Shown piece by piece: positions 45,001-63,999 of a DNA stretch of 64,000 bases (position 1 is its first letter; each line of letters starts with the position of its first letter). The notes beneath the pieces are model-generated. The model was not told the origin of the DNA, searched no databases, and saw only the letters and a list, made by a program, of their open reading frames with translations. The position numbers and the translations under genes are program-made. The DNA is taken from the IMG/VR virus record IMGVR_UViG_3300046171_000155; one strand, given 5' to 3'. The stretch comes from a virus.

Positions 45001-45366
45001 TTTAACAAACGTGTCAAGTGCATCAACATCAGCAGGAGTCGCAACACCACTTGTTAAAGTAGCATTAATTGTAGCAATGTCGGATGAGTTAGACGCAACA
45101 CTTGCCACTAGGTTTGTATCTGCATCTTGGAATGCAGTTACGATTTCTTGTAATGTATCCAGAGTTTCTGGAGACGTACCTAGAATCGCGGTAACTTGCG
45201 CTTGCAGGTCTGCGATGTCAGCAGCAGTTAACTCTGCTACTGCTTCTTGGATGGCACCTGCGACAACTTTGCCGTCAGCACCAATAACAATAACGTCGTC
45301 GATGGAAAGTCCACCACCGTGGATATCGGCTCCGTTCTGTATTCTAAATTTTTTATTTGTAGACAT
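42034..45366 (-). CDS. Fibre/whisker protein with coiled-coil segments and two CBM-like beta domains
   Basis: APAALDTLNELAAALGDDANFA x2, LDSLTEIV nodes, duplicated beta-rich module; fibritin (wac) position upstream of gp13. Confidence 0.7.
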   Translation of the reverse strand: MSTNKKFRIQNGADIHGGGLSIDDVIVIGADGKVVAGAIQEAVAELTAADIADLQAQVTAILGTSPETLDTLQEIVTAFQDADTNLVASVASNSSDIATINATLTSGVATPADVDALDTFVKGHGEPLDAYGDITTVSGMYHAGAVHEGSFYNNGDHVSFQRYNGGYAYVAYKRLTNLEVGATYTLSASVHTTTETGYIYMVNGAATFPESSNFPTPGTVSATLLVTGDDAGTTLEQQFTVTESTMDIVFIVNGHGDQMRFSDITVSSPSVTSPLALDTTATQVVPAVNELHTEVDALTVAVATAKSEAISTAAADATTKADQAESDAKAYADQVVAATVDAAPAALDTLNELAAALGDDANFASTVTASIATKADDAATTAALALKEDKTTVATLDTYVKGAPPVHAELYSNSASAYYVNDWGPNATNSVSGIGTFTRGGQAYVAHQRITGLTVGEEYTLSTTTQSTTGSGSIQVTDGDVITSGSHPSNTVEYIPITNGVATEYSETFTATQTSMDVVFIVNQAGSDKALRFSGLSLKTTEPPTVSLDTTATQVVPAINEVHSELDALAATQSGDTSSLTTAIATAKSEAISTASADATAKADAAEADAKAYADQVVAATVDAAPAALDTLNELAAALGDDANFASTVTASIATKASQVDHDAEVARATAAEGVNASAIAATNARTAGISTSSGSTDIQMTAEVDMDSNNIKNANDVYANRGFIDTIESNDLKVQTGTVDFEGSIINFGSSTITGGGFGTATKAEIDQHLNVSAADSGDFLKWNGTDYEFTDYIQGRIASNQIVVEGTLKVEQPGSTIDWQDGLVHFGGSQVIVDEPTSANLAANKSYVDGGDSDVTAVAAAALAVESTARTAADANLQSQITALSGSTSGDVSDLQDAIDAEEAARIAADGVLQNNIDAEAAVRASADLALAGDISDEADARIAGDNAITAALNTEIGDRQSGDSALQAQIDFITSNTDPAALDSLTEIVAAFQSADDSITGVVTSNTTRISALEGSVTGIEAWNTDNVSEGSVNKYWTEQRTKDCLSGGLCITYNSTTGEISVDETEAESSLRVAESVASDDADKLDGQEGTYYRINVYNVAGTLVN

Positions 45367-45436: not shown

Positions 45437-48400
45437 TTATGCGTCAACGTAAGTTACTGAGACAGAAACTACAGCACCAGCAGATTCAGCAGTGTACAAT
45501 AGTTCAACACTTGAACCGTTAACTTGTACATCTGTATCACCTAGCAATGAAGATCCAGTAAATACGATACCGTATTCTACGATTGATGCGTTAGTTCCGT
45601 CGTGGACAACTAGACATTCGCGAGTCTCAAACTCACCACCATTCTCTACAGTAACGATGTACTTAGCAGAACGATATGTGCCTTTGTTGAATGCCGAAAC
45701 GACTGTTGCAGATGTTCCTGCAATGATGTCGTTACCCTGCTCGAACACCTTGATGTTGTCTGCAAGAGTTTCTAGACCAACCGACTTAGGATCTAGTACA
45801 CCAACTGAGTTAGTAGACTGAGCAATTACTACTGCCTGTGTACCAACTGGGATCGCACTGTTAAATGTGATCTGCTGGTTAACCGCATCGATAGAGTAGT
45901 GAGTACCTGGATCCTGAATAACACCACCAACGAATACAATCGCGTTTTGATCTTGCGTGTAGAAGTTCAATGCGAATGTAGTCTGCGCACCGTCACCAGC
46001 CATTGTCTGACGCTGTGCGTTGTTGAATGCCAACTGAGTTGGATCTTGTAGAGACATTCCGTCTAGAGTGTTATTTACACGTAGGACGTAACCATTCTTA
46101 CCGTCGTATTCTGAATCAGTAACATCTGCAAGTTCTAGTAGAGTCTTAGCAGTGTCGATTGAGATTACACCAGTTGATGCGTTGTAAGATGCCTTACCTG
46201 CACCTTCAACATCTGTTAGAGATACTGAAGCACGAGCACGTTCTGTTGTGAAGTATTGGTTATCACCTTCTGCAACGTCATCTGTAGTGAACTGAGAGAT
46301 ATGTTGTGCCGCAAGACCTGCGTCCAACTGACCCTTGTTTACTGCGTCTGTCGCTACTGTTCCGTTCGCAACACCCTCAACCTTGTTGCCAGACATGTCC
46401 AAGTTACCAGACATTGAATCGCCTGACTTCTTGACACGAGCATCAATTTGAGTTTGTAGGTTTGCGTCCGCAGTAGCAAACTCACCACGAATCGCCGCAC
46501 CCTGTGCCGCACGATCAATGATCTCTTGTGCAAGTCCAGAAGCGTTAGTAGCGATATCTGTTTGGTTAGTTTGGATTAGTGATAGTAGATCACCGTCTCC
46601 AGACTGTAGTGCAGCAACGATCTCTGTTAGAGAATCAAGTGCCGCAGAGTCTGTGTTAGATACGACAAAGTCGATCTGAGACTGTAGTGATGCTTCAACA
46701 CCCTGTGCACGTGTAGACTCATCTACGATTGACTGTGCGTTAGTTGTGATTAGTACACCGTTGGCAACTTCTGCCGCTGTTGCACGAGCAACTTCAGCAG
46801 CTAGTGAAGCACGGATGTCCGAATCTTCTGAAGCACGGAATGCAACTTCTGCGTCAATCTGTGACTGTAGGTTACCCTTGTTTCCGTTGTGAGAGTTATC
46901 AACCGCCTTGATTGCCGCGTCTAGTTTCGCAGCAGCATCTGCCAATGAAGTAGATGCATTCAGGTAGTTAGTTGTTGTTGGAGTGACATAAGTTCCGTCA
47001 GTTGCAAGACCTGCACCCAACTGTGTAGCAGACATCTCTGTTTCTAGTACAGTAGTACGAGAATCTAGAGCATTGTCGGCAGCAGCACGAGCGTTTGCTT
47101 CTGCTGTGATCTTACCATCTAGAACATCATCTGCGTTTTCGCGTAGAGTTGCTTCGTTAGCAACGATTCCGTCTGCGTAAGTCTTAGCAGCAACTTCTGC
47201 GTCATCCGCTTCGTTTTCTGCGTAAGTCTGTGCAGAAGCAAGAACGACTGCGTCACGTGCGATGTAGTCTGTTTGATCGGTTGTACGATCAGCAGCTAGA
47301 TCAATACGGATCTGTGTATCTGCAGCAGTACGATCAGCGATCTCTTGTACTAGAGCGTCACTGTCAGCGTCTGCGCGAGACTCAGCAGCAGTCATACGAG
47401 CTTCTACTGCGTCTACTTCACCGTGAACTTCGTTTACTGCACCAGTGATTGTCTGTGCAGTTGTTTGGAATACACCAGTACCCAACTTAGTTTCTAGAGC
47501 GTCGATGTCACCTTCGTTGACAGTCAAACGACCATCTTGTGCGGTGTTCTTAGTCTCAACCGCGTCCATGCGAGATTCTAGAGAATCGCCACGACCTTCG
47601 ATTGAATCCATCTCTGTTTCTAGAGTTGAGATACGACCAGTATTAGAGTCTGCTTGAGTGTGTAACTCGTTTACAGCAGCAGTTACATTTGTCGCAACAG
47701 TTGCTAGAGTAGAAGTACCCATCTGAGACTGTAGAGTGTCAACATGACCTTCTTCAGTAGTCATACGACCTTCTAGTGAAGTTGCACGACCTTCTACTGC
47801 GTCCATTTCAGACTGTAGAGTATCGATTTCACCTTCAGCAGTTGTTACGCGACCTTCTAGAGCAGTTAGGTCACCAACTTCTATGTCTAGTTCAGCGTGC
47901 AGTTCGTTAACAGCAGCAGATAGATCAGTTGCAACAGTTGCTAGAGTAGCAGTTCCGACCTTAGTTTCTAGGTCGTCGATGTCACCTTCGTTTACAGTTG
48001 CGCGACCTTCTAGAGCAGTAGCACGTGCTTCAACAGCATCCATGTCTGCCTGTAGTTCGTCAACATGACCTTCTTCTGTAGTTACACGATTCTCTAGTGC
48101 AGTAAGATCAGCAGCTTCGCCGTCTAGTTCCGCATGTAGTTCGTTAATCGCGTCAGAAACATTTGTTGCAGTTGTGTGTAGAAGTGCAGAACCCTGCTTA
48201 GTTTCTAGGGCAGTTGCACGACCTTCAACACCACTCAAACGACCGTTCTGAACTAGTTGATCAGAATCTAGACCGTTTAGACGGTTTGTGTGAGCAACAT
48301 CTTTCGCTTCTAGGTCAGTAGCACGAACTTCAACAGCGTCCATTTCTGATTCTAGAGTAGTTAGACGACCACCGTTAGCATCGATAACACCTTGTAGATC

Positions 48401-51349
48401 TGAATCTGCGTCTTGGAATGCAGTAACGATCTCTGTTAGTGAATCTAGTGCAGCACCATCTTCGTTAGAAACGATGAAGTCAACACGACCTTCTAGAGTT
48501 GTTAGGTCTGTACGGATACCAGTTTCGACACCAGTAGCACGTAAAACTTCTGCGTCTAACTGGTTCTGTAGGTCTGTAACATCACCTGCTTGTAGGCTTT
48601 GTAGAGCAAGGATATCAGAATCGTTTGCAGTAACCTGCGCCTGTACACTATCTACATCTGTGCGTAGACCAGATTCGATACCTTCAGCACGTGTCTTTTC
48701 TGCATCGATGTTAGACTGTAGGACGCCTTCAGCGGCAGTCGCACGGTTAACTTCAGCAGTGATCTGTGCTTGGTTATCATTGTGATCAGATGCCTGTAGG
48801 ATCTGAAGTGCAAGGATGTCTGAATCGTTTGCAGTGATCTGTGATTGGTTCGCATCAATATCGGTACGTAGACCAGCTTCAACACCTGTCGCACGAGTAG
48901 TTTCAGCCGCAATCGCGTCTGCGTTAACTACTTCAGCAGCAGTAGCACGAATAACTTCTGCGTCCAACTGAGCTTGTAGATCATCAACATCGTTACCTAC
49001 TAAGTTTTGTAGAGCAGCGATATCTGAATCGTTTGCAGTAATTTGTGCTTGGTTAGAATCAACGTCTGTACGTAGACCCGCTTCAACACCAGATGCACGA
49101 ACAACTTCTGCAAGAATTGCAGCGTTTAGATCGGAATCTGCTTCGTTGAAGTCTGCTTCTACTGTATCTAAACGGTTGCTTAGACCTAGTTCAGCAGCAA
49201 GTGCACGAGTGCGTTCGATTGTGATATCACCAGCATTAATCGAGATGTTTGAGATGTTAGTGTTGACTTGAGTCTGTAGACCTTGTTCAACACTTGTTGC
49301 GCGATTACGCTCTGTAACAACTGCGTCAGCGTTAACGCCCTCTGCAGTTGATGCACGGTTAACTTCCGCAGTGATCTGTGCTTGTAGATCATCAACATCG
49401 ATTGTAGTGTTTGCATTCAATGCATCCAACTGACCCTGTAGGTCCGAATCTTTAGTAGCACGAGCAACTTCTTCTGCGCGTAGATCGATTTCGTTTTGAG
49501 CAGCAAGTGCTTCAACATCATCCATCTCGTCTTCTAGTACAGTAGTACGTAGAGACAGTGCAGTGTCAGCAGCGATACGAGCAGCTTCTTCAGCAGAAAC
49601 GATTGTGTTAGCGTGAGCGATTGATTGTGACTTAGCAGTTGCGATACGGTCAGTGACAGTATTACCACCAGTTCCGTTTACAGTTGCGTCACCGATTAGA
49701 GCAGCGTCTTGTGCATCAGCGTGTGCGATTGCAACAGCTTGATGTGCATCTGCTTCTTGATCTGTGTATGCCTTTGCTTCAGCAAGTACATCTTCTGTAG
49801 AAACATCAAGATCTAGTTCTAGTTGATCAATCTGAGACTGTAGACTTGCGTCGGCAGCTGAACGAGTTGACGCTTCTGTATCGATATTGCTCTGTAGAGT
49901 AGTATCTGCAGACGAACGAGCGTTTGCTTCGTTTGTAATCGCAGTCGTGTTAGATGCGATAAGAGCAGACATATCTGAGTCAGCAGACTGGAACGCACCA
50001 ACGATTTCTGTTAGTGAATCAAGAGCGGCTGGATCAGTGTTTGATGTGATGAAGTCAACTTGTGATTGTAGACCTGCTTCAACGCCTTCAGCACGTGCTT
50101 TCTCAGTAGCAACTTCTGCTGAGTTTGCAACATCACCAGCAAGACGATCAATGATTTCTTGATCAACGCGAGCGTTTAGATCTGAGTCAGCTGCAATACG
50201 AGCAGCGTTCTCGATAGCAACATTATTACTTGATTCAGTGATTGCTTCTGCTTTTGCAGTTGCGATACGATCTGTGACAGTGTTGTTTGTCGAACCGTCA
50301 ACAGTTGCATCACCGATCATTAGTGCGTCTTGTGCTTCAGCGTGTGCCTTAGCAGCATTTTCTGCAGTAACGATATCTGCGCCTAGGTCAGTACGGACTT
50401 GGTTGTCAGCAACTGCACGAGCAGCGATTTCGTCTTGGATGCTCTGTGCGTTTGCTTGTTCTGCAAGACCTGCACGAGTAACTTCGTCAGTGATCTGAGT
50501 TTGTAGAGATGACTCAACACCAGTTGCACGAGAGATCTCAGCAGCAAGGTCTGATTGTAGTTGATCTACATTACCTTCTTCTGTTGTCATTCGTGCTGCT
50601 AGTGCGTTGTCAGCAGCGATACGAGCAGTTTCTTCTACGCCGATTAGACCAGCAAGTGAAGATTCTGCAGATTGTGCGCGAGAGATCTCTGTAGTTACAC
50701 GATCATCGATTGCTTGTTCAGCATTAGTTGCACGAGTAACTTCGTTAGAGATTGCAGTACTGTTTGCAATGATTGAACCAGAAAGTACATCATCTGCGTC
50801 TTCGAATGCTTCGATGATTTCTGCGAACGAATCAAGCGAGTCTGAATCAGTGTTGTTTAGTACTAGATCGATACGAGCAGATAGTGCCGCGTCTGCTGAT
50901 TGATATGCAGCTTCGATTGCGTTTTCACGTAGAACCGCACGTGTATTCTCTGCGTCGATATTTGATTGTAGTATAATATCAGCAGCAGAACGAGTAGATG
51001 CTTCTGTGTCGATATTAGACTGTAGTAGTGATTCTGCAGCTAGTGCACGATTTGTCTCTACTAATACATCAGCATCAATCTGTGCCGCAACGTCTGCGTT
51101 CGCACGAGATGGTGTGTAGTAAAGGTTATCGCCTTCTGCTAGATCATCTGTTGAGAATGAAGAGAAGAATGCGTCTGCACCAATCTTTTTCAGTGAGTCT
51201 GTACCTACGTCATATAGTAGGGTGAAACACTGAGACGGGTCTAACATACCCGTTAGGGTTGATTGTCCCTGTACCGCACTTTCGTCAAGTTTGGTATTGA
51301 TTACCGCCTTGTCCGCTAATGCTGGGGATTTAATCTGCCTAAATGCCAT
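45437..51349 (-). CDS. 1970-aa long coiled-coil fibre protein
   Basis: Ala/Glu/Arg-rich helical repeats (E..RA..AE..L), four LDS(L/F)xEI nodes, TDD(L/V)AEGDNxY motifs at both ends, beta-rich C-terminus. Confidence 0.75.
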   Translation of the reverse strand: MAFRQIKSPALADKAVINTKLDESAVQGQSTLTGMLDPSQCFTLLYDVGTDSLKKIGADAFFSSFSTDDLAEGDNLYYTPSRANADVAAQIDADVLVETNRALAAESLLQSNIDTEASTRSAADIILQSNIDAENTRAVLRENAIEAAYQSADAALSARIDLVLNNTDSDSLDSFAEIIEAFEDADDVLSGSIIANSTAISNEVTRATNAEQAIDDRVTTEISRAQSAESSLAGLIGVEETARIAADNALAARMTTEEGNVDQLQSDLAAEISRATGVESSLQTQITDEVTRAGLAEQANAQSIQDEIAARAVADNQVRTDLGADIVTAENAAKAHAEAQDALMIGDATVDGSTNNTVTDRIATAKAEAITESSNNVAIENAARIAADSDLNARVDQEIIDRLAGDVANSAEVATEKARAEGVEAGLQSQVDFITSNTDPAALDSLTEIVGAFQSADSDMSALIASNTTAITNEANARSSADTTLQSNIDTEASTRSAADASLQSQIDQLELDLDVSTEDVLAEAKAYTDQEADAHQAVAIAHADAQDAALIGDATVNGTGGNTVTDRIATAKSQSIAHANTIVSAEEAARIAADTALSLRTTVLEDEMDDVEALAAQNEIDLRAEEVARATKDSDLQGQLDALNANTTIDVDDLQAQITAEVNRASTAEGVNADAVVTERNRATSVEQGLQTQVNTNISNISINAGDITIERTRALAAELGLSNRLDTVEADFNEADSDLNAAILAEVVRASGVEAGLRTDVDSNQAQITANDSDIAALQNLVGNDVDDLQAQLDAEVIRATAAEVVNADAIAAETTRATGVEAGLRTDIDANQSQITANDSDILALQILQASDHNDNQAQITAEVNRATAAEGVLQSNIDAEKTRAEGIESGLRTDVDSVQAQVTANDSDILALQSLQAGDVTDLQNQLDAEVLRATGVETGIRTDLTTLEGRVDFIVSNEDGAALDSLTEIVTAFQDADSDLQGVIDANGGRLTTLESEMDAVEVRATDLEAKDVAHTNRLNGLDSDQLVQNGRLSGVEGRATALETKQGSALLHTTATNVSDAINELHAELDGEAADLTALENRVTTEEGHVDELQADMDAVEARATALEGRATVNEGDIDDLETKVGTATLATVATDLSAAVNELHAELDIEVGDLTALEGRVTTAEGEIDTLQSEMDAVEGRATSLEGRMTTEEGHVDTLQSQMGTSTLATVATNVTAAVNELHTQADSNTGRISTLETEMDSIEGRGDSLESRMDAVETKNTAQDGRLTVNEGDIDALETKLGTGVFQTTAQTITGAVNEVHGEVDAVEARMTAAESRADADSDALVQEIADRTAADTQIRIDLAADRTTDQTDYIARDAVVLASAQTYAENEADDAEVAAKTYADGIVANEATLRENADDVLDGKITAEANARAAADNALDSRTTVLETEMSATQLGAGLATDGTYVTPTTTNYLNASTSLADAAAKLDAAIKAVDNSHNGNKGNLQSQIDAEVAFRASEDSDIRASLAAEVARATAAEVANGVLITTNAQSIVDESTRAQGVEASLQSQIDFVVSNTDSAALDSLTEIVAALQSGDGDLLSLIQTNQTDIATNASGLAQEIIDRAAQGAAIRGEFATADANLQTQIDARVKKSGDSMSGNLDMSGNKVEGVANGTVATDAVNKGQLDAGLAAQHISQFTTDDVAEGDNQYFTTERARASVSLTDVEGAGKASYNASTGVISIDTAKTLLELADVTDSEYDGKNGYVLRVNNTLDGMSLQDPTQLAFNNAQRQTMAGDGAQTTFALNFYTQDQNAIVFVGGVIQDPGTHYSIDAVNQQITFNSAIPVGTQAVVIAQSTNSVGVLDPKSVGLETLADNIKVFEQGNDIIAGTSATVVSAFNKGTYRSAKYIVTVENGGEFETRECLVVHDGTNASIVEYGIVFTGSSLLGDTDVQVNGSSVELLYTAESAGAVVSVSVTYVDA

Positions 51350-52736: not shown

Positions 52737-53087
52737 TTACCTCGTTACAGAAGGGTTGACTTTTATCTTACCTTCTAGTATTCTTTCTATGATAGTATGT
52801 CCGTCTTCATCAACGAAACTGATTTCAACATCATAGACATATCTACCACGAGTGGATAGTGTATCGGTTTGTAGGTTTGTTAGGGATATTGTGACGATTC
52901 CCTCTAAAGAGGGAGTGGGTATTACAGCAGTAAAGTCAACTGACTCTGCACTTCTGTAGGTCTTTTTCATTTTAGCTGCAGCAGAGTAACCAGTGAGATC
53001 TTTCTTTGATCCATCTGGGTTCACTAACTCTATCTGTAGAGCTAGGTCCGCACCCTGATCAATTGTGAAATCTTCGTAAGTTGCCAT
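52737..53087 (-). CDS. Small structural protein (IDQGAD...YVYDVEI...ERILEG type)
   Basis: Beta-rich ORF under a late promoter. Confidence 0.65.
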   Translation of the reverse strand: MATYEDFTIDQGADLALQIELVNPDGSKKDLTGYSAAAKMKKTYRSAESVDFTAVIPTPSLEGIVTISLTNLQTDTLSTRGRYVYDVEISFVDEDGHTIIERILEGKIKVNPSVTR

Positions 53088-53099
53088 TCTGCTCAAACC

Positions 53100-53139
53100 C
53101 TGAGTGTTATAAACTTCTGTTTCTATTTATAACACTCAG
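53100..53139 (-). promoter_or_regulatory. Late promoter (53124-31) inside a perfect 14-bp inverted repeat
   Basis: CTGAGTGTTATAAA-N12-TTTATAACACTCAG. Confidence 0.75.
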
Positions 53140-53155
53140 ATACTTGAGAATATAA

Positions 53156-53863
53156 TTATTCTGCAGAGATATCTTCTAGAACCATCTCACGGAAAGAATC
53201 AGACGCATCTGACCAATCGAAGATGTAAGATACTGTTACACGCCATGAGTCTTCAGAAGAAGCTGCGTGGTAAAGTACTTTATCTGGTTCGCCATACGGA
53301 CCAAAGTAAGCAGCTTTACAAGTCCACTTACCTACTTCGTCTTGACAACGAACAACTTCTTTTGTCTCTGGGTGAACATACTCGAAGTAACCGTCACCAC
53401 CTTCTGAATAAGAGAAGATTAGGTTATATCCTGGCGCATTAGCGTTGTTGTGCCATGAGATAAATCCGCCTGGAGGGTAGATTGCGCACAGTGCATTATG
53501 CTTAGTGGATAAAAAATTCATCATACGGTCGTTTAGGTCACCTAGCTGGTGTGTTAGGTCTCTTTTGAAGATTGGATCTGCGCCCTCAGAGAAGATTTTG
53601 TGGTTCTTATCTGCAGTCTTTAAATTGTATCCTACCATCTCATCTGGAAATCCTTCGTGATTGATACCTTCACGTACGATTTCATCTTTATAACCATGAC
53701 CAACGTAGTAAGGACGTTGACGCATAGCTTGAGCAGATGTCAAATGGCAGTTTTCTTCAAAGCCCTGCAATGTATGCACTTTGGCATATTCGTTTAGAAT
53801 CTCAAGCAGTTCTGGGTTATTAACTGGAACATGCTTAAGATATTGGTCATTTACCTGTGTCAT
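53156..53863 (-). CDS. 2OG-Fe(II) oxygenase-like (DSBH) protein, paralogue 3
   Basis: IYPPGGFISWHNNANA...YHAA...RVTVSY. Confidence 0.6.
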   Translation of the reverse strand: MTQVNDQYLKHVPVNNPELLEILNEYAKVHTLQGFEENCHLTSAQAMRQRPYYVGHGYKDEIVREGINHEGFPDEMVGYNLKTADKNHKIFSEGADPIFKRDLTHQLGDLNDRMMNFLSTKHNALCAIYPPGGFISWHNNANAPGYNLIFSYSEGGDGYFEYVHPETKEVVRCQDEVGKWTCKAAYFGPYGEPDKVLYHAASSEDSWRVTVSYIFDWSDASDSFREMVLEDISAE

Positions 53864-54597
53864 AAGATTGGTGTATCCTTATTTAAACCTGCAGAGAAGT
53901 GACGAATAATCACTGGTCCTGTTTCAGGTTTTGTGATCGCCCAGTTAAGAGCGTTATAATAGTTCCATCTCAAGTCGTCATCAAAGATACCGACTTTGAG
54001 ATCCTTATACTTTTCTTCTTTCTCGGTCAACCACCAGAGTGAGAACTGATCCCAAGATTTGAGACTGTCTGCATACCCTTCTGGCCACCAAGAGTCATTC
54101 ATTTGTCTGAATGTCAAGTCCCACCAATCATCCATGAACTCACGTACAATCGGTTTGGACATATCATATAAACATACTGCTCCACACAATACAAACTTTG
54201 ATACACCTTCCGGAGTGTCAAAGTCACGTTCTGCATATATGTAGTCACGGTCATCTGTCAAAGCAGTAAAGACCACATCATGGTCCTTCATTTCATCCCA
54301 TACTTTGACGATGTCTTCATGCTCTACTTCCATATCAGCATCAATATACATCGTTAGGTCATACGGCGATTTCGCCATACCCCATAACTTAGCGCGGTAG
54401 TGATCGTCACATAAGAGAATATCGTCTGCGACATCTCGACCACGGTCATCAAGGAATCGTTCCTCAGTCACCAAACAGATCTTGCATTCCTCTTCTGGTT
54501 CATAGTAGTCCCGAAGAGACTCTGCAAGATTGATTGCGTACAAATAAAAGTTGCGTTTCTTAGACGCAACAATAATAAAACCTTTACTCTTTTCCAT
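53860..54597 (-). CDS. GT-A fold glycosyltransferase-like protein
   Basis: RAKLWGMAKSPYDLTMYIDAD (DxD), CGAVCLY, WDQFSLW, IIRH. Confidence 0.7.
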   Translation of the reverse strand: MEKSKGFIIVASKKRNFYLYAINLAESLRDYYEPEEECKICLVTEERFLDDRGRDVADDILLCDDHYRAKLWGMAKSPYDLTMYIDADMEVEHEDIVKVWDEMKDHDVVFTALTDDRDYIYAERDFDTPEGVSKFVLCGAVCLYDMSKPIVREFMDDWWDLTFRQMNDSWWPEGYADSLKSWDQFSLWWLTEKEEKYKDLKVGIFDDDLRWNYYNALNWAITKPETGPVIIRHFSAGLNKDTPIL

Positions 54598-55045
54598 CTG
54601 TCTCGGCCTCTAGTTGTTCTTGCAGAATCATAATTGAGTACATATCTACTTCAATCTTTGACTTTGCCCGACGCAGTTTAGCCTTCAACTTGCGGTTCTT
54701 AGAGTTCTTAATCTCTTCAACCTCAAACGCTTCTAGTTTGTAGTTGAACAGTTTTTCTAGTTTACGTGCCTTTTGGTGTTCTAAGTCACGTTGTTTTTCT
54801 TCTTCAGCTTCTGCCTTCTTACGAACAACACGATCTTCAGTTTCTTTATTAATCGATTCTTCGCCTAGAGCATCAACTACTTCATTAAACAGTTCGTTCT
54901 CACTACCATCTTTGTTGTGACGTAATAAAAACATTTGCTGTCGTGTAACACGACCCACATCATCTTCAAGTTCTAAAATACAGTTGAGTTCTTTTTTCTC
55001 TTCTGTTTCCCAGAACGCATTATCCATCCATTGCTTACGACTCAT
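54584..55045 (-). CDS. Hypothetical protein with charged coiled coil
   Basis: GGAG SD; first gene after the 1513-aa repeat gene. Confidence 0.7.
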   Translation of the reverse strand: MSRKQWMDNAFWETEEKKELNCILELEDDVGRVTRQQMFLLRHNKDGSENELFNEVVDALGEESINKETEDRVVRKKAEAEEEKQRDLEHQKARKLEKLFNYKLEAFEVEEIKNSKNRKLKAKLRRAKSKIEVDMYSIMILQEQLEAETDGKE

Positions 55046-55135: not shown

Positions 55136-58100
55136 TTATGCAACCCTTGCGTATAGAGTATACGTCTCGACCACATTAGTTAGTGAGTCAGAGATTGTTG
55201 CACCTACGTAGTTACCTAGGAACGATCGTGCGTAGTTACCTACGAAGTCACGGTTATAGTTTCCTTCGAATCCACGAGTATAGTTACCAGTGAAGTCACC
55301 TACGTATGTTGAAACACGATTACGTGAGTAAGCACCTGAGTAAGCAGATGTTCTGATACGTGCGTATGCAGATACGCGGACACGAGAGTAGTTACCTACA
55401 AAGTCACGAGAGTAAGTACCAGTGTACTCACCTACGAAACCACGGTTGTAGTTACCTACATAGTTCCCTGCGAAGTCACGCGAGTAAGCACCTGTGTATT
55501 CACCAACGAATCCACGAGCATAGTTACCTACATAATCACCAGCAAATCCGCGAGTGTATGCACCAGTGTATTCACCAGCGAATCCACGTGAGTAAGCACC
55601 TGTGTACTCACCTACGAAACCACGGTTATAGTTTCCTACGAAGTCTCCGACAAAGTCACGAGCATATGCACCAGTGTACTCACCTGCAAACGTTCTTGCG
55701 TAGTTACCTACGAAGTCGCCGGCAAATTGACGTGTGTACTGACCTGAGAAAGTACGCGCATAGTTACCAGTGAATGTTGTGTTATACGTACCAGCATATT
55801 CACCAACGAAACCTCTTGCGTAGTTACCAGTATAGTCACCAGCGAAGTTACGGTTGTAAGTGCCAGAGTAAGCACCAGTGTACTCACCTACGAATCCACG
55901 AGAGTAAGCACCAGTGTACTGACCAGAGAATCCACGAGAGTAGTTACCCACATAGTTTCCACCGAAGTTACGTGCATAGTTACCTACATAGTTACCAGCG
56001 AAGTCCCCAACGAAATCACCGACGAAGTTGCCAGCGAAGTTGCGTGAGTAGTTGCCAGTAAATGTGCGAGAATAGTTACCAGTAAAGTCACCTGCAAAGT
56101 TAGTCACACGATCACGAGTGTATGCAGAAGAACGGTTGCGGACATATGCAGATACACGAGTTCGTGCGTATGCAGAGTAACGAGTGCGTGTTGATGTGCG
56201 AGTGTACTCACCAGTAAAGTTACCAGCAAAGTCACCTGCGAATCCACGCGCGTAGTTACCAACAAAGTCACCGACAAAGTCGCGAGCATAGTTGCCGCTG
56301 AAGTTACCTTCGAAGTTAGTTACACGATCACGAGTAAAGTCACCAACATAGTTGGTTACACGAGTACGAGCATATGCTATTAGCATAGGTTGCGGTGAAA
56401 AGACCTGAGTCCTGTTACGAGTGTATTCGCCTACGAAGTCGCCTGCATAGGACCCAGTACGTGTGTAGTTACCAGTATTCGTGTATACTGCAGTGCGGTC
56501 ACGAGTGAATGCACGAGCGTAGTTACCAGTGTAGTACAATGTACGAGTGTAGTAACCAGTGTTTGTAGAAGTACGTGTAGAAGTACGCGCATAGTTACCT
56601 GTATAAGATGCAGCGCGTGTACGAGAGTAGTTACCCACAAAGTTACCAGCGTAGTTAGTTACACGAGTACGACCGTAGTTACCAGTATAGTTACCTGCGC
56701 GAGTACGACCGTAGTTACCTACGAAGTTTCCAGTATAACCAGTTGCACGAGTTCGTGTGTATGCAGATGCACGATTACGCGTAAAGTTACGCGAGTAAGC
56801 GCCTGAGAAGTACTGGGTTCTCGTATATGCAGATGCACGATTACGCGTAAAGTTACGCGAGTAAGCGCCTGAGTAGTACTGGTTTCTCGTATAGTTACCT
56901 GTATAGTTGCCAGCGTAAGAAAAATTATTGTTATAAGAGAACGCATTTTGGGTAATTGAATAAAACACCTGTTGTCCAAGAGCGCTCTGATATGTACCAC
57001 GCGACCAACTCATTCCGTTACTATTCGATAGTGTTGATGCACCTGCGGTACCGATTGCTCTACTAAATCCGTTCCAATAAGCAAAAGCCATATAAGATTC
57101 ATAATCAATTTCCCAATAAGTGCTATATGCAACATATGTTGGTCCCTGTGCAGCCACACTTACTGTTGAGGTTCTAGTAGATGTTCGAGTGGAAGTTCTC
57201 GTAAAGGTTCCTACGCGACTATAATCTCCACCGTATGCACGTGAGTAGTTACCAGCAAAGTTGCGTGAATAAGATGCTGTGCGACTATAATCTCCACCGT
57301 ATGCGCGTGAATAGTTGCCTGTAAAGTTACGTGAATAGTTACCTGCGAAGTTTCCAGTATAACCAGTTGCACGAGTTCGAGAATAGTTACCTGCATATGA
57401 GAATGCGCGGTTACGTGAGTAGTTACCAGCGAAGTTGCCTTCAAAGTTAGTAACGCGATCACGAGAGTAGTTACCTACATATGATGCAGCACGGTTACGA
57501 GTATAGTTACCTACGAAGTCACCTGCGTAGTATAGAGTACGAGTATATGATGGCGTAGTTGCATATGCGGCAGAATAGTTACGAGCATAGTTGCCTACGA
57601 AGTTACCAGTGTAGTACAATGTACGCGTATAGTTCAATGTACGAGTTGAAGTACGTGTTGAAGTACGCGCATAGTTACCAGTAAAGTCACCAGTGTAGTT
57701 GCCAGCATAGTTACGAGCATAGTTTCCTACGAAATCGCCAGTAAATGTAGTTGCATAGTTACCTACAAAGTTTCCGGCATAGTTAGTAACACGTAGTCGG
57801 GTAAAGTTGCCGACATAGTTAGTAACGCGTGTACGAGCATAAGCACTGTAACGAGTACGAGTAGATGTACGAGTTGAAACACGAGCATAGTTACCGACAT
57901 AGTTGCCAGCAAAACCACGTGAGTAGTTACCTACAAAGTTACGTGCATAGTTGCCTTGGAAAGAACGCGAGTAGTTTCCTACGAAGTTACCAGCAAAGTT
58001 GGTTACACGGTTACGAGTATATGTTGATACACGTGCACGAGAATAAACACCAGCAAAGTTGGTTACACGATCACGAGTGTAGTTAGTTACACGGGTGCGT

Positions 58101-59677
58101 GTGTAATCTGCAGAGTATGCAGAGACGCGTGTACGAGTTGAGGTACGAGCATACGCAGAAACACGGTTACGCGAGTAAGTTCCCGCATAAGCAGAAACAC
58201 GGTTACGTGAGTAAGTGCCTGAGTAAGTACCTGTGTATGATGAAACGCGTGTGCGAGTATAGTTTGCAGAGTATGAAGAACTGCGTGTACGCGAGTAAGT
58301 ACCTGCGTATGAAGAGACACGACCACGAGTGTACGAAGATGCACGACTACGTGAGAATGTTCCGGTGAAGTTAGTCACACGGTTACGAGTGTATGTTGAT
58401 ACACGTGCACGGTTATAAGTTCCTGCGAAGTAACCAGTAAATGCGGTCAATCGGTTACGAGTATATGATGAAACTCTTGTGCGAGCATATGTGCCCGAGT
58501 ACGCAGAAGTACGAGTTCGCGAATAAGTTCCTGAGTAAGCAGAAACGCGAGTACGACCGTAGTTGTCTGAGTAAGACGAATTACGAGTACGCGAGTAAGT
58601 ACCAGTGTATGAAGATACGCGAGTACGACCATAGTCAGCAGCATATGCTGAACTGCGGTTACGTGAGTAAGTACCGTCATAAGTTGAAGTACGCGTACGA
58701 GCATAATTACCTTCAAATCCACGAGTATAGTTACCAGTGAAGTCACGCGTATATGCACCAGTGTAATCCCCCACGAAAGTTCGTGAGAAAGTGTTGACAC
58801 TGTTGCGAGTATATGATGAAATGCGGTCACGACTATATGCAGAAATACGAGTACGAGCATACGAAGAAACACGGTTACGAGTGTAATCGGTATCTATGAT
58901 TGTGCGTCGTGAGTTCTCTGCACTACCACGAGCATGCCATGTTCCTGGCAAGATAGGTGCACCCTGAGCAGAAGATCTTAACTGATAAGATCCAATTGCG
59001 CCTGGGACCGATCGTAATGTCTTAGCTCGTTGACCTAGAGTAAAAGACATTTGACCGTTGGTCATCTCTTTGAAACCATCAAAGGATGAACCATCATAAC
59101 AGATGGCGACCGGACGTTCTTCATCAGGTGCTATGTATGAACCGTCTTTTTGATAAATGTGGTAAGCTGTTGTTGTGCCGTCACCAAGTGTATCGGTGAA
59201 GACATTAGAAATAGCAACCTTATAATCAGGACTTGGTGGAATAGAAGATAGTCTATAAATTCCATTCCATTGGTTTGTTTCCATTGTGCTTAATGCACGA
59301 GTTACAAGGAGGTCTAGATCACCATCCGTCATTTCATAGAAACCCGGATTGTCACCTAGCTCGTAATAACCAACAGGACGTACAAAATTTTCTCCAGACT
59401 CATCAGCAGTACCGCCTACTTGCTTTAGCGTAGTAGTTACGGTGGTACTAGTGATGTTAGATGCAGGGTGTGTTCCTGCCACTTCATTGTAGTATGTATC
59501 TACAAATGAACCAATATTAACACCATCAGTAAGACTGAGGTTGCCTGTGTCACTAGCAGCGGCCGCTGTTAGTGCTTCAGATACGGCATACGCAAGATAT
59601 TCTTCTTGCGAAGGCGTAAATTCCTGTAAGTCACCATTAGCATTTTGAATTTTTAGTGGAATACTAGATGTTGACAC
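55136..59677 (-). CDS. Giant Tyr/Arg/Gly repeat protein 1, predicted self-complementary beta-hairpin fibre
   Basis: ~264-aa N-domain, arm 1 (58885-57164), ~82-aa tip, arm 2 (56917-55202), short C-terminal strand; late promoter upstream. Confidence 0.85.
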   Translation of the reverse strand: MSTSSIPLKIQNANGDLQEFTPSQEEYLAYAVSEALTAAAASDTGNLSLTDGVNIGSFVDTYYNEVAGTHPASNITSTTVTTTLKQVGGTADESGENFVRPVGYYELGDNPGFYEMTDGDLDLLVTRALSTMETNQWNGIYRLSSIPPSPDYKVAISNVFTDTLGDGTTTAYHIYQKDGSYIAPDEERPVAICYDGSSFDGFKEMTNGQMSFTLGQRAKTLRSVPGAIGSYQLRSSAQGAPILPGTWHARGSAENSRRTIIDTDYTRNRVSSYARTRISAYSRDRISSYTRNSVNTFSRTFVGDYTGAYTRDFTGNYTRGFEGNYARTRTSTYDGTYSRNRSSAYAADYGRTRVSSYTGTYSRTRNSSYSDNYGRTRVSAYSGTYSRTRTSAYSGTYARTRVSSYTRNRLTAFTGYFAGTYNRARVSTYTRNRVTNFTGTFSRSRASSYTRGRVSSYAGTYSRTRSSSYSANYTRTRVSSYTGTYSGTYSRNRVSAYAGTYSRNRVSAYARTSTRTRVSAYSADYTRTRVTNYTRDRVTNFAGVYSRARVSTYTRNRVTNFAGNFVGNYSRSFQGNYARNFVGNYSRGFAGNYVGNYARVSTRTSTRTRYSAYARTRVTNYVGNFTRLRVTNYAGNFVGNYATTFTGDFVGNYARNYAGNYTGDFTGNYARTSTRTSTRTLNYTRTLYYTGNFVGNYARNYSAAYATTPSYTRTLYYAGDFVGNYTRNRAASYVGNYSRDRVTNFEGNFAGNYSRNRAFSYAGNYSRTRATGYTGNFAGNYSRNFTGNYSRAYGGDYSRTASYSRNFAGNYSRAYGGDYSRVGTFTRTSTRTSTRTSTVSVAAQGPTYVAYSTYWEIDYESYMAFAYWNGFSRAIGTAGASTLSNSNGMSWSRGTYQSALGQQVFYSITQNAFSYNNNFSYAGNYTGNYTRNQYYSGAYSRNFTRNRASAYTRTQYFSGAYSRNFTRNRASAYTRTRATGYTGNFVGNYGRTRAGNYTGNYGRTRVTNYAGNFVGNYSRTRAASYTGNYARTSTRTSTNTGYYTRTLYYTGNYARAFTRDRTAVYTNTGNYTRTGSYAGDFVGEYTRNRTQVFSPQPMLIAYARTRVTNYVGDFTRDRVTNFEGNFSGNYARDFVGDFVGNYARGFAGDFAGNFTGEYTRTSTRTRYSAYARTRVSAYVRNRSSAYTRDRVTNFAGDFTGNYSRTFTGNYSRNFAGNFVGDFVGDFAGNYVGNYARNFGGNYVGNYSRGFSGQYTGAYSRGFVGEYTGAYSGTYNRNFAGDYTGNYARGFVGEYAGTYNTTFTGNYARTFSGQYTRQFAGDFVGNYARTFAGEYTGAYARDFVGDFVGNYNRGFVGEYTGAYSRGFAGEYTGAYTRGFAGDYVGNYARGFVGEYTGAYSRDFAGNYVGNYNRGFVGEYTGTYSRDFVGNYSRVRVSAYARIRTSAYSGAYSRNRVSTYVGDFTGNYTRGFEGNYNRDFVGNYARSFLGNYVGATISDSLTNVVETYTLYARVA

Positions 59678-59746: not shown

Positions 59747-59770
59747 AAAAAATCCCCTAAGAGTTAGGGG
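59747..59770 (-). terminator. Intrinsic terminator
   Basis: CCCCTAA-CTC-TTAGGGG then ATTTTTT. Confidence 0.65.
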
Positions 59771-60242
59771 TTGTAGGCCAATTTACTTCCGCGACGGAAA
59801 GTATCGCTCCTAAATTATCTGTAACATCTCTTAACGATTGACGGTAATTTTTCCATCCTATTCGTTGTTCTTCAGTCAAAGGACTGTCCGCCACTTGAGT
59901 CCAATCTGTTAATGACAATTTTCTATTTCTTTCTACCCTGATATCGTTCAGTAAATCTTCTCGGTTAAACTCCCATCCACCCAGTTCATTGCTCCAAGTG
60001 GCATGCCTATTAGGCGGACTACCAATAAAAATAAATTCTCCATCCGATGGAACATACCAATAATAACTCATAAAGTGACGAAGATCTTCGCACCCTGCAG
60101 GGACTCTATCTTCTGTTATGTGAAGTATTAACTCTTTTCCATCTTCAGAGACACCGGCTGGATCTATTTTAAAAGTAGGGTATGAAATCCTATTTATTTT
60201 ACCAGACACTTTATCTACGTAGACGATGTATTTCAATTCCAT
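59757..60242 (-). CDS. Tail fibre assembly chaperone-like protein
   Basis: C-terminal IRVERNRKLSLTDWTQVADSPL...WKNYRQSLRDVT...VNWP motif. Confidence 0.85.
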   Translation of the reverse strand: MELKYIVYVDKVSGKINRISYPTFKIDPAGVSEDGKELILHITEDRVPAGCEDLRHFMSYYWYVPSDGEFIFIGSPPNRHATWSNELGGWEFNREDLLNDIRVERNRKLSLTDWTQVADSPLTEEQRIGWKNYRQSLRDVTDNLGAILSVAEVNWPTTPNS

Positions 60243-60288: not shown

Positions 60289-63200
60289 TCACTCAAGTCC
60301 AACATTTTCAGAAGTAAATGTTGTAGTAAATGTTGGGGTGTATGTTGGGGTGAATGTTGGAGTATATGTTGGGGTATATGTTGGTGTTGTAGAATCTGTT
60401 GATGTGCTTGACACCTTAGTGACTGTGTACTCTCCTGAGTTCAACCATTGACTTCCATTGTAGAAACCAATAGTGTATTGTTTTGTTTGTCCTTCTGCAG
60501 GTACATCTGAAACAGTAACGGTTTGAGCACCATTAGCGTTCTGTATAGAGAATGATTGAAGGAGAGTTAAGTTGTTATTATAAATTCGACCTTGAACTGA
60601 CTGACCCCCTTGCGTATTAAAATCAAACTCTACCGTATGTGTCGTCGCGCTATGGTGTACAACATTTTGAGTCGTTGATAAAATAGTGCCGATGTCATTA
60701 TCATACAAAGTAAATGACTTTGAGTCAAGTACTCGCACATTAGATGATCCTCTAGGTTCAGACATTAAAGATGCGGTATTGCCTGTTCTCAATTCAGCAA
60801 CGAATGTTTCTCCTTGCCAACCAATTTCAGAATCTTCTTGACTTCCTGTTCCAGTGCGTGTATAATTGCCTATGTAGTTTCCTGTATAGCCTCCTACAAA
60901 TGTTCTCTCGTAAGCACCACCAAATGTATTTGCATAGGAGCTAGATCTAGCGCGAGTACTGGTTCTATTATAAGTGCCTTCGTAAGCGCCAGTATATTCA
61001 CCAACAAACCCTCTACTATAATTTTCTTCAAAAGGTCTTGTATAATCACGAGAATAATTTCCAGTATATTCACCGGCGTAGTTTCCAGAATAATTACCAG
61101 TGTAGTTAGAACCTATTGATCTAGCGAACTCAACAGTATAGTTTCCGATGAATGGTGTTAAAAAATCACCTGTATAGTTACCAGCGAAGTTGCCTACATA
61201 CTCTCCAACATACCCACGTGCATAGTTTCCAGTGTAATTGCCTACAAGGAAGTCTCTAGTAAAATATCCAGCCCCTTGTGTAACTCTTGTGCGAGTAAAT
61301 TCTCTGCTATAATTTCCGCCGAAGTTGCGTGAATAGTTCCCTACGAAGTTTGCAGTATAGTTTCCAAAATAGTTTCTGCTATAATTACCAACAAAGGTGC
61401 CAGCAAAATCACCGACATAATCTCCAACATACCCACGCGCATATTCACCTACAAACCCAGTACTATAGGACCTAGTATATGCCGAATCACGACTTCTAGA
61501 GTAATCTGTTATTCTTGTTCTGTTATAATTGCCCGCAAAGTTGCCCACAGAAGTGCGTGAATAGTTCCCCTCAAAAGTAGAAGTTCTTATGAGAATGAAG
61601 TTTCTACTATAGTATAACGTTCTAGTGAAGTTGCGTGAATAGTTGATAGCATAATCTATGGATCTTGTATAATTACCTGTAAAGTTTCCAGCAAACCCTC
61701 TTGAATAATTACCTACATAATAAAGGGTTCTACTATAACTAGAGGACCTTACTCTAGCATACCCATCATGCGGAACCTCATATTCTATAGGATCACCATT
61801 TATATCAGTCTCAGGTAATGTAGATATTCTGGTAGATGCATAGTATCCAGTTCCAGTTCTTGTGCGAGTGTATCCACGAATAAAGTCCCTCGCATAGTTA
61901 AAGTCTCGCGAGTAAGTGCCTGTAAACGGAGCAGTAAATTCACTGGAATATGTCGCGCCGTTGGTAAATGATTGAGTACGATCCCTAGTAAAATTACGCG
62001 TATATTCAGTAGTTGTTCCAGTAGGGGCCGCGGTAGAACTTGTGGTTCCTTGACCAACTTCATAATACTTGGTGCCACCTATTGTAGCGATTAAATCACC
62101 TCTCCAGTAATAAATGTTATCGTTACCTTTTAACTTAGTTGGGCCGTTGCCATAATCCCGCGTGTCATTAAGTACTTTCGTTGTTCCGTTCCATTTAATA
62201 TTGGTGACATGTACTGTGATCGAAAACCCTTCGGAATTACTAGTATTAGTATCAACTGAGAAGAAAGTGTTGTTTGCAGTGTAAAAATATCCATCGCCAA
62301 TGGTACGTGTATATCCACGAGAATAGTTACCAGTAAAAGTACTAATTCTTCCTGCTGCAGCGAAGTCGCCAACATAGTTGCCTGTGTAAGTGCCTTCGTA
62401 ACCAACAGTTCTCGTAAAGTTGCGTGTGAATCCACGAGAATAGTTTCCTATATAATATAAGGTTCTTGTAGAGTCGGCTGGGAAATAAACTCCAGTAAAT
62501 TCTCCGACATAAGAACCGACTGTTGTTCTGGTGCGACTATAGGCAGAATATCGCGTACGGGTAGATGTGCGAGTAAATTCTACTGCTGGGTTTACATAAT
62601 TCCCAAGATAATTTCTAGCGTATGACCCCACCCTAGTATAGTCACCAGCATAGTTACCAGTGTAACTTGCGCTAGTCGTTCTCGCATAATCACCTACAAA
62701 ATTCGTAACTCTGGTTCGCCCGTAGTTGCCAACAAAGTTCCCAGTAAAAGTTGCAGTATATGTACTAGAGTAATACTCGTTACGAGTCACGCCTCTAGTG
62801 CGACTATATGTAGAGTAACGTGTGCGACTATATGTTACCGTACTTGGCATTCTAAAATAATACGCAACATCACCAGTGGGAAAGTCTCTAGAGTACTCTT
62901 GTGGTCCAGTTAATATAGCATTTCTTGTAAACTCTCTAGCGTAATATGCTGTATAGGATACAGTACGATCTCTGGTATACGCAGAAACTCTCGACCTTGT
63001 ATAGTTTCTACTGTAGTAGCCAATATATGATGCACCATAACTACGAGCATACGATGAAGTTCGGGTAGCTTGTCTGCTTCGGTTGTAGGTAGAGTAACGT
63101 GTACGACTATATGTCACCGTACTTGGCATTCTAAAATAATACGCAACATCACCATTGGGAAGGTTTCTAGAGTACTCTTGTATTTCAGTTAATGTAGAAT

Positions 63201-63999
63201 TTCTTGTGAAGTTTCCTGTGTAGGTCCCCAAGAACTCTCTAGAGTAATTCGTAGTATCTGTTCTGCTGTATCCCGCTACAAATGCAGAGGTTCTGGTTCT
63301 TGAATATGTCGCAGAAAAAGATCGCGCGTACCCTTCAACTCTTGTTCTATCATAAGTACTTGTTCTTGTTCGAGCGTATGCTCCAGAATACTCTCCGGTA
63401 TATTCTCCAACATAATTACGAGCAAAATCTCTTGAGAACGACCCTGCTACACTTCGAGAGTATGAAGATATTCTATTTCTTGAATATGTGCCTATGTAAT
63501 CAGCAACATTGGTATATGAGACTGATCTCGATGAGGTGGGAGAAGTTGTTGTGAAGGTTGCGCTTTTAGTATCACCAAAGAAAGCTACTCTGTCCGACCC
63601 TAAGTCGTTCCCAGAACCAGAAGTTTGAAACACTCGAACATGATATGCACCTTCTTCAGAAGTATTCGCATTGAATGTAATAGAACTTCCTTCTGTAATT
63701 GCAGATCCTGATTGATATGTCAGAGATCCAGTAGCGTTTTGATCTCCGGAACCGTCACCATCTGAGTCAACATCACCGCCACCACCAGGAGGTTCATAGG
63801 TACCAGACCCACCAGTTCTCAAGGTTGCGCCTAGAAGACTGCCTGTAGGATAAACTTTGAGTCTCTGGTCGCCATTTTGTAAATCCACAATAGCATCATA
63901 AGCTGAAGCTAATGTGCTACCAACCCTTAGACCAAAAAAGTCCGATCCGTGTGAGTTTTGAGCAGACCATTCAATATTTACATATTCGTTCGTATCTTT
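60289..63999 (-). CDS. Giant Tyr/Arg/Gly repeat protein 2, 5'-truncated by the window edge
   Basis: Frame stays open for 37 codons beyond the called GTG at 63888; same repeat units; Calx-beta-like halves flank the repeats; C-terminal TPT(Y/F) repeats. Confidence 0.85.
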   Translation of the reverse strand, partial: KDTNEYVNIEWSAQNSHGSDFFGLRVGSTLASAYDAIVDLQNGDQRLKVYPTGSLLGATLRTGGSGTYEPPGGGGDVDSDGDGSGDQNATGSLTYQSGSAITEGSSITFNANTSEEGAYHVRVFQTSGSGNDLGSDRVAFFGDTKSATFTTTSPTSSRSVSYTNVADYIGTYSRNRISSYSRSVAGSFSRDFARNYVGEYTGEYSGAYARTRTSTYDRTRVEGYARSFSATYSRTRTSAFVAGYSRTDTTNYSREFLGTYTGNFTRNSTLTEIQEYSRNLPNGDVAYYFRMPSTVTYSRTRYSTYNRSRQATRTSSYARSYGASYIGYYSRNYTRSRVSAYTRDRTVSYTAYYAREFTRNAILTGPQEYSRDFPTGDVAYYFRMPSTVTYSRTRYSTYSRTRGVTRNEYYSSTYTATFTGNFVGNYGRTRVTNFVGDYARTTSASYTGNYAGDYTRVGSYARNYLGNYVNPAVEFTRTSTRTRYSAYSRTRTTVGSYVGEFTGVYFPADSTRTLYYIGNYSRGFTRNFTRTVGYEGTYTGNYVGDFAAAGRISTFTGNYSRGYTRTIGDGYFYTANNTFFSVDTNTSNSEGFSITVHVTNIKWNGTTKVLNDTRDYGNGPTKLKGNDNIYYWRGDLIATIGGTKYYEVGQGTTSSTAAPTGTTTEYTRNFTRDRTQSFTNGATYSSEFTAPFTGTYSRDFNYARDFIRGYTRTRTGTGYYASTRISTLPETDINGDPIEYEVPHDGYARVRSSSYSRTLYYVGNYSRGFAGNFTGNYTRSIDYAINYSRNFTRTLYYSRNFILIRTSTFEGNYSRTSVGNFAGNYNRTRITDYSRSRDSAYTRSYSTGFVGEYARGYVGDYVGDFAGTFVGNYSRNYFGNYTANFVGNYSRNFGGNYSREFTRTRVTQGAGYFTRDFLVGNYTGNYARGYVGEYVGNFAGNYTGDFLTPFIGNYTVEFARSIGSNYTGNYSGNYAGEYTGNYSRDYTRPFEENYSRGFVGEYTGAYEGTYNRTSTRARSSSYANTFGGAYERTFVGGYTGNYIGNYTRTGTGSQEDSEIGWQGETFVAELRTGNTASLMSEPRGSSNVRVLDSKSFTLYDNDIGTILSTTQNVVHHSATTHTVEFDFNTQGGQSVQGRIYNNNLTLLQSFSIQNANGAQTVTVSDVPAEGQTKQYTIGFYNGSQWLNSGEYTVTKVSSTSTDSTTPTYTPTYTPTFTPTYTPTFTTTFTSENVGLE

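Follow-up and report, generated by a model that had tools for sequence, protein, structure and literature searches.

Mirror-matched repeat arms suggest a fold-back fibre in an uncultured T4-like phage

A viral DNA stretch of 64,000 nucleotides (IMG/VR record IMGVR_UViG_3300046171_000155, analysed whole and called the window below) contains an open reading frame for a protein of 1513 amino acids at positions 55136..59677, starting with GTG. This fibre gene and the other features discussed here lie on the minus strand unless stated otherwise. The protein is composed of a conserved N-terminal domain, two long arms built of four-residue units around a central island, and a short conserved C-terminal tail. 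The units of one arm match those of the other in a single antiparallel register, so that the two arms mirror each other. This mirror relationship, first noticed in an initial annotation of the DNA, is confirmed here and generalises across a whole protein family. Sequence covariation indicates selection that keeps each unit of one arm matched to its antiparallel counterpart in the other. The protein probably has a structural role in a fibre of an uncultured T4-like myovirus, with a fold-back zipper as its building plan, and the covariation strongly supports the proposed fold-back.

Two arms in one mirror register

The N-terminus of the protein (VSTSSIPLK) agrees with the starts of its homologues. 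Residues 1-264 (58886..59677) form the N-domain, which is conserved (36-60% identity among family members) and is presumed to be the proximal, attachment end. Arm 1 (residues 265-840; 57158..58885) consists of 141 four-residue units and six 2-residue kinks; near the base it is rich in Arg-type units. The tip island, 76 non-repeat residues (841-916; 56930..57157), lies at the symmetry centre. It is followed by arm 2 (residues 917-1492; 55202..56929), the mirror partner of arm 1, which is rich in Gly-type units near the base. The last element is the C-terminal tail (C-tail; residues 1493-1513, ...ETYTLYARVA). Together with the stop codon it occupies positions 55136..55201, and it is conserved in all of the ~40 complete homologues of 525-2282 amino acids.

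The kinks provide an anchor for the register. Six of them in arm 1 (LN, LY, PS, LY, AS, GT) lie opposite six in arm 2 (QY, QY, GY, LY, GN, GS), as the initial annotation had stated, and their spacings are exact mirrors: 1,5,1,21,5 units in arm 1 and 5,21,1,5,1 in arm 2. By our own arithmetic, the chance of such mirrored spacing is ~1 in 1.9e7, which holds even with only four elements independent.

Units were assigned to three classes: A ([YF]xRx), G ([YF]xGx) and R ([RS]xxx). Mutual information between the classes of opposite units amounts to 0.878 bit in the kink-anchored antiparallel register. None of the ~120 other antiparallel registers exceeds 0.346, and no parallel register exceeds 0.379. 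The same register contains 59 R-G pairs; the maximum in other registers is 34. Against full and local shuffles, z-scores are 17-26 for mutual information and 8-10 for R-G pairs. When the shuffling is confined to blocks of 6 or 12 units, which preserves local composition, they are 17-22 and 8-9; neither periodicity nor a composition gradient therefore accounts for the mirror signal. The order of units is aperiodic across most of both arms. A constraint on the arms in one whole-length antiparallel register, aperiodic unit order with a register-specific signal, and a tip island at the symmetry centre had all been proposed from the first reading of the sequence, and all hold: the anti-diagonal signal stands far above that of shuffles and of all other registers.

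Individual pairs follow simple rules. Among the Arg-type R units (RxSx/STRT), 59/61 are placed opposite (F/Y)xGx and 0 opposite A. Units of the RxSx, RVTN and STRT types pair with FxG(N/D/E), and YxRx pairs with YxRx or YxG(T/N/A). The outer pairs in the true register read YTRN/YVGA, RVSS/FLGN and YART/YARS, and R-G pairing in the outer segment is 41/41. The outermost pairs listed originally (YTRN/FLGN, RVSS/YARS and those following) are one unit off, which lowers this figure to 15/41; the rules then derived, 'YxRx with FxGx' and 'RxSx with YxRx', are artefacts of that shift. Nearly all pairing information is held by unit positions 1 and 3; small or polar residues occupy positions 2 and 4. At the DNA level, inverted repeats are absent from the fibre gene, and Watson-Crick complementarity in the protein register (21-29%) shows no excess over the background of 25 +/- 3%.

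Two other procedures were abandoned. A residue-level log-odds matrix combined with Smith-Waterman alignment found the hairpin of the 1513-residue protein, but it also reported false hairpins inside one arm of a truncated homologue and did not stop at globular inserts; unit-level alignment replaced it. A register scan of the whole protein by residue-class mutual information missed the positive control, as phase effects dominate and a +1 shift splits the signal.

Each arm has 576 residues, and counting bears out the early remark that neither contains any Lys, Cys, Trp or His. Net charge, from residue counts, is ~+72 in arm 1 and ~+36 in arm 2; both arms together have 155 Arg, 47 Asp+Glu and 0 Lys, which gives ~+108 per chain. 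An irregular element of nine residues, FSPQPMLIA (56375..56401), interrupts the four-residue rhythm of arm 2. With its preceding unit it forms 13 residues, and the near-identical relative L002 has 12 there, three regular units. Compared with L002, the DNA around the element is locally scrambled, not cleanly shifted. The compensated frameshift proposed earlier at ~56375-56405 is instead this irregular patch, by which arm 2 gains one residue. On the opposite (+) strand of the gene, at 55360-56061 and 58099-58740, there are open frames of 137, 95, 89 and 99 amino acids; they look like by-products of repeat codon usage, not genes.

Covariation across the family

Defined by its N-domain and C-tail, the family comprises 508 clusters at 50% identity, as found with an N-domain profile among 1.84 billion representatives. 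Its members are ~400 to 4046 amino acids long and share an N-domain of ~260 residues, a C-tail of the ...TYTLYVRVA type and a repeat middle; the 1513-residue protein has the conserved N-domain, the C-tail and the repeat middle alike. From 80 IMG/VR loci, 35 unique complete homologues of 525-2282 amino acids were obtained. In these 35, an alignment of the two arms anchored at the base runs to the centre almost gap-free. Most leave a non-repeat island or a short turn there, and in some relatives the centre is merely turn-like.

The pairing rules are general. In most long homologues, 90-100% of the pairs that involve R are R-G; family-wide, R lies opposite G in 1106/1176 cases and opposite A in 1/1176. 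The G units differ with their partner: opposite R they begin with Phe in 71% and end with N/D/E in 93%, opposite A they begin with Tyr in 90%. Arg hardly ever lies opposite Arg: of 2383 pairs between position 3 and position 3' in one candidate residue register, 13 are Arg-Arg (~240 estimated by chance), and the other candidate register has 0-1. In homologue P0005 the polarity of the arms is swapped, arm 1 being Gly-rich and arm 2 Arg-rich, and the pairing rule is kept (z 7-9).

The strongest evidence for pairing of the arms is provided by compensatory insertions and deletions (indels). Relatives at 80-91% identity differ by 60+60, 28+28, 26+26 and 12+12 residues in the two arms, at mirrored distances. 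Thus L039 and L040 (91% identical) differ by 60 residues in each arm, 330 and 328 residues from the tip. The differences between L043 and L045 are 28+28, 26+26 and 26+26 residues, and that between L013 and L016 is 28+28, again at mirrored distances; so are those of 112+112 and 16+16 residues between L031 and L035 (63% identity). In P0007/P0008 the indels occupy mirrored positions and have unequal lengths (+4/+2). Mirrored changes of arm length in homologues had been named beforehand as a check on the fold-back, and the length changes observed are solely mirrored.

The gene of the 1513-residue protein itself contains two 66-bp tandem duplications. The one in arm 1 (residues 781-802 and 803-824; 57206..57337) has copies identical at 55/66 bases. 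The one in arm 2 (residues 933-954 and 955-976; 56750..56881) is reported by Tandem Repeats Finder (TRF) with period 66, 2.0 copies and 97% matches, the copies being identical at 61-64/66 bases. The two duplications have unrelated sequences and affect exactly paired segments (residue numbers sum to 1757). Differences from L002 concentrate near the tip, at residues ~790-975, where the region has been replaced.

Several members (P0004, P0007-P0010) carry the family N-domain and C-tail around other kinds of repeats: a FAGVRYFSGPR type, a strongly acidic ILYEGDFILD / QDETNPT type and an irregular Tyr-rich type.

Among 50,697 phage records in GenBank, the N-domain was found only in Phage C48C1 (OQ984149; locus L001, 5138-15181 (-)). 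Its homologue is 3347 amino acids long, with 261 tokens in arm 1 and 260 in arm 2 after excision of five globular inserts. Antiparallel alignment of these arms gives 114 R-G pairs and 0 R-A pairs, with a score of 375 against 240 +/- 13 for local shuffles. The inserts are globular domains of 128-258 residues, present in arm 2 only and mostly located after xxGP. A tandem duplication of ~75 residues (~2052-2126) covers the end of a domain and the first repeat units. On the shaft these inserts would stand out as knobs from a single strand; alternatively, they may in part be an assembly artefact.

The proposed fold-back and its alternatives

The simplest physical cause of two arms matched antiparallel under selection is that they lie side by side. 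In the proposed structure, the N-domain (residues 1-264) and the C-tail (residues 1493-1513) would sit together at the proximal end. The chain would run outwards as arm 1, form at the distal tip a small beta domain that is exchangeable (a tight turn in some relatives) and return as arm 2, the arms being zipped in a single antiparallel register over ~140 four-residue units. The concentration of information in positions 1 and 3 fits extended strands with alternate side chains at an interface. Both arms may accordingly be pictured as extended beta strands whose odd-position side chains would meet between them, with Arg, Tyr and Phe packed against Gly and Ser and with Arg-aromatic contacts. Changes of length arise via paired duplications or deletions at mirror positions, and the tip may serve as a receptor-binding module. 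By analogy with other fibres, the oligomer may be a trimer. The length of ~190 nm depends on the orientation of the strands: it holds only if they are axial (~0.33 nm per residue), and strands lying across the axis would make the fibre much shorter.

Three other explanations can be weighed against this one. The arms may fold back and yet not run along the axis, interleaving instead as cross-beta or beta-helical layers (solenoid- or triple-beta-helix-like), so that the register would reflect stacking of adjacent layers and the shaft would be several-fold shorter than 190 nm. Long stretches with 8- and 12-residue super-periods (TRF periods 24, 36, 72 and 108 bp) fit such layers. The regular Gly could form corners, as it does in known beta-helical fibres, and a lone two-stranded ribbon of 190 nm would be mechanically unusual. 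We nevertheless consider layering unlikely: the unit order lacks a period through most of the arms, turns have no constant spacing, no beta-helix family matches, and the one-to-one mirroring of 2-residue kinks is explained most simply by strand-to-strand pairing. When the protein is compared with beta-helices and solenoids, it has no profile match and its units are aperiodic, yet local 8- and 12-residue periods are present, and structure prediction yielded no confident model of the arms. A different arrangement would keep the strands extended and pair them between two or more chains lying head to tail, each arm 1 with an arm 2 that belongs to a different chain. Such a rod would have roughly double the length, each end bearing N-domain/C-tail modules and the tip islands lying midway. 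Sequence statistics constrain only i <-> c-i and cannot tell cis from trans, and the N-domain and C-tail meet here too. Pairing between chains is nonetheless quite improbable in view of the relatives with a merely short, turn-like centre, the swapping of the central island and its flanks between near-identical relatives in the manner of receptor-binding tips, the neighbouring 1199-residue protein with mirror arms between two non-repeat ends, and the attachment of phage fibres by one end.

It is also conceivable that the arms do not pair physically at all, the mirror being left by DNA events (an ancient inverted duplication or a strand-symmetric mutation bias) or by composition gradients in a disordered low-complexity region. 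The arms are indeed of low complexity, their composition gradients run in opposite directions, and the residue-level matrix was misled into hairpins within one arm of a truncated homologue. Such an origin is hardly credible, since the gene has no inverted repeats and no Watson-Crick excess in the protein register, and scores drop steeply in local shuffles that preserve the gradients (z 8-17). Moreover, the recurrent indels of equal length at mirror positions in close relatives need joint selection on both arms, and P0005 keeps the rule with its Arg-rich and Gly-rich arms exchanged.

Several observations weigh against the fold-back zipper itself. Pairing between chains would account for the mirror register just as well, and the role as a virion fibre is read from the tail-module context. 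At the level of residues, two registers fit about equally: 1<->1'/3<->3', with Tyr-Tyr, Arg-Phe and Arg-Gly/Ser pairs, and 1<->3, with Tyr-Arg, Arg-Gly and Ser-Phe pairs. The placing of all Arg and aromatic side chains on one face is ambiguous as well. A net charge of ~+108 per chain is unusual for a self-associating beta structure and has no explanation. The unit test is non-significant in P0006, and small or distant members give z 0-3.6, at low power. AlphaFold2 (AF2) run on the single sequence of a tip-centred fragment (residues 741-1016) gave an uninformative model (mean predicted local distance difference test score, pLDDT, 34); with an alignment of 22 sequences, the arms of the tip-centred model were at ~30 pLDDT and had no predicted helices. 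No solved or predicted fold resembling the 1513-residue protein was found.

The 22-sequence AF2 model gives the core of the tip (residues ~850-913) as a small six-strand all-beta domain with pLDDT 85-92. A fold search with it returned no known fold (best Z in the PDB search 3.5, best E-value in BFVD 0.06). Sequence searches brought little more. There were 0 Pfam families in the protein and 0 NCBIfam matches to the N-domain; phmmer searches of PDB chains with the whole protein and with the N-domain gave 0 matches at E <= 1 and at E <= 10, and the N-domain profile had only chance matches in the PDB (E >= 0.3). The sole match in PHROGs, phrog_15773 (function unknown; E 3.8e-6), falls within the repeats, and the ESM-atlas feature search yielded nothing usable. 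A mirror-coded beta fibre was found described nowhere in the literature searches, nor in the profile libraries and solved structures searched.

The initial annotation had stated that no phage fibre built in this way has been described. These searches agree with it as far as the mirror code is concerned; the out-and-back topology, in contrast, has a small-scale precedent in the needle of phage T4 gp37, the nearest topological precedent for the proposed fold. The needle is short, with tens of residues per arm, and its HxH motifs bind iron. In the structure ascribed to Bartual et al. 2010 (PDB 2XGF), the chain reportedly runs to a distal receptor-binding head and returns, its strands being antiparallel and its C-terminus lying near the start of the needle. 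The likeness extends to the out-and-back chain, the distal head and the T4-like tail-fibre module with a chaperone gene nearby, although here the topology is deduced from sequence covariation alone. The gp37 arms are an order of magnitude shorter and share no sequence similarity with the present ones, which instead follow a 4-residue Arg/Tyr/Phe/Gly code. Unlike the needle with its HxH iron motifs, both 576-residue arms contain 0 His. Seven iron atoms are present in the gp37 needle (PMC6957217).

The closest analogy in logic may be drawn with the antiparallel coiled-coil arm of the SMC type. In SMC/Rad50 proteins, the N- and C-terminal parts form one head, a single chain contains matched long antiparallel arms with a small domain at the fold, and the lengths and irregularities of the arms co-vary. 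The resemblance concerns overall logic and is meant as an analogy only: those arms are alpha-helical heptad coiled coils in ATPases, whereas the protein described here has a 2/4-residue beta-type period, is no ATPase and belongs to a virion module.

Other fibres are compared more easily by appearance. Triple beta-helices of the gp5/gp12 type, the adenovirus triple beta-spiral and collagen-like fibres all form long thin repeat shafts with a distal binding domain. The proposed fibre would likewise be long, thin and built of beta or extended repeats, with a distal binding domain. In the trimeric shafts, however, every chain takes a single course from base to tip, with translation relating its repeats; to our knowledge, none of them shows mirror complementarity between halves of one chain. 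The protein studied here has mirrored halves and matches none of those families. The collagen-like GXY repeat has Gly at every third residue; GXY triplets are absent here, the period being 4 with Gly at unit position 3 in some units only.

Genomic setting and meaning

The window belongs to a T4-like myovirus, with genes for the gp23 major capsid protein, gp20 portal, gp18 sheath, large terminase, a neck protein, UvsW and a family-B DNA polymerase. A 413-residue protein of the isocitrate lyase family is also encoded (1261-2502; Pfam ICL, E 2e-92), a possible auxiliary metabolic gene.

The fibre gene is located within the tail-fibre module. Upstream of it lies a gene for a 161-residue protein resembling tail-fibre assembly chaperones (59757..60242; Pfam Phage_tail_APC, E 5e-18; PHROG annotation tail fiber assembly), and a Phage_tail_APC-like gene precedes the fibre gene in most related loci. 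The next upstream neighbour is the 1199-residue repeat protein (60289..63888), in which a weaker, looser mirror code surrounds a central non-repeat island; its hairpin alignment scores 94.5, where local shuffles reach 57.8 +/- 6.4. Both its ends are non-repeat, and the C-terminus has a linker of the TPTYTPT type.

Downstream, a cassette of four genes (52737..55045) encodes proteins of 153, 245, 235 and 119 amino acids and follows the fibre gene in the same order in ~45 related loci. The 245-residue protein is far better conserved than the fibre (64-96% identity in most loci, 52-53% in the two most distant). Only the last, 119-residue protein has a named relative, matching phrog_1084 and phrog_3304 ('L-shaped tail fiber protein assembly'). 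The 153-, 245- and 235-residue proteins have no significant match in Pfam, PHROGs or NCBIfam, the 245-residue one giving a sub-threshold ExbD hit only. Assignments of cassette genes as a glycosyltransferase and a 2-oxoglutarate (2OG) oxygenase were not supported by these three libraries. Two further fibre-like proteins are encoded downstream: one of 1970 amino acids (45437-51349) with weak PHROG matches only, and one of 1110 amino acids (42034-45366) with clear tail-fibre PHROG matches.

On balance, we lean towards regarding the protein as representative of a fibre design not described before. A chain would zip to itself over hundreds of residues by a readable pairing code, in which Arg units face Phe-Gly units, Tyr-Arg units face Tyr-Arg or Tyr-Gly units, and Arg is never opposite Arg. 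Its length would change through paired duplications, much like compensatory change in an RNA stem. The design would be common to many uncharacterised proteins of marine and environmental T4-like phages, which form one large family, and would possibly be programmable.

If the arms do pair in this manner, the fibre would be a protein counterpart of the nucleic-acid stem, complete with compensatory indels and a register code that can be read from the sequence. It would also serve as a clear test case that present structure predictors do not pass. Should the proposed structure be true, the known types of phage fibres would be joined by a new kind of shaft, with a length tunable from ~20 to >240 units per arm, and simple rules would become available for the design of long beta fibres of set length. 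The structure would also explain several hundred unannotated, often giant proteins of environmental T4-like phages, and would point to a candidate long fibre, its tip exchangeable, in a group of phages about whose host-recognition apparatus little is known.

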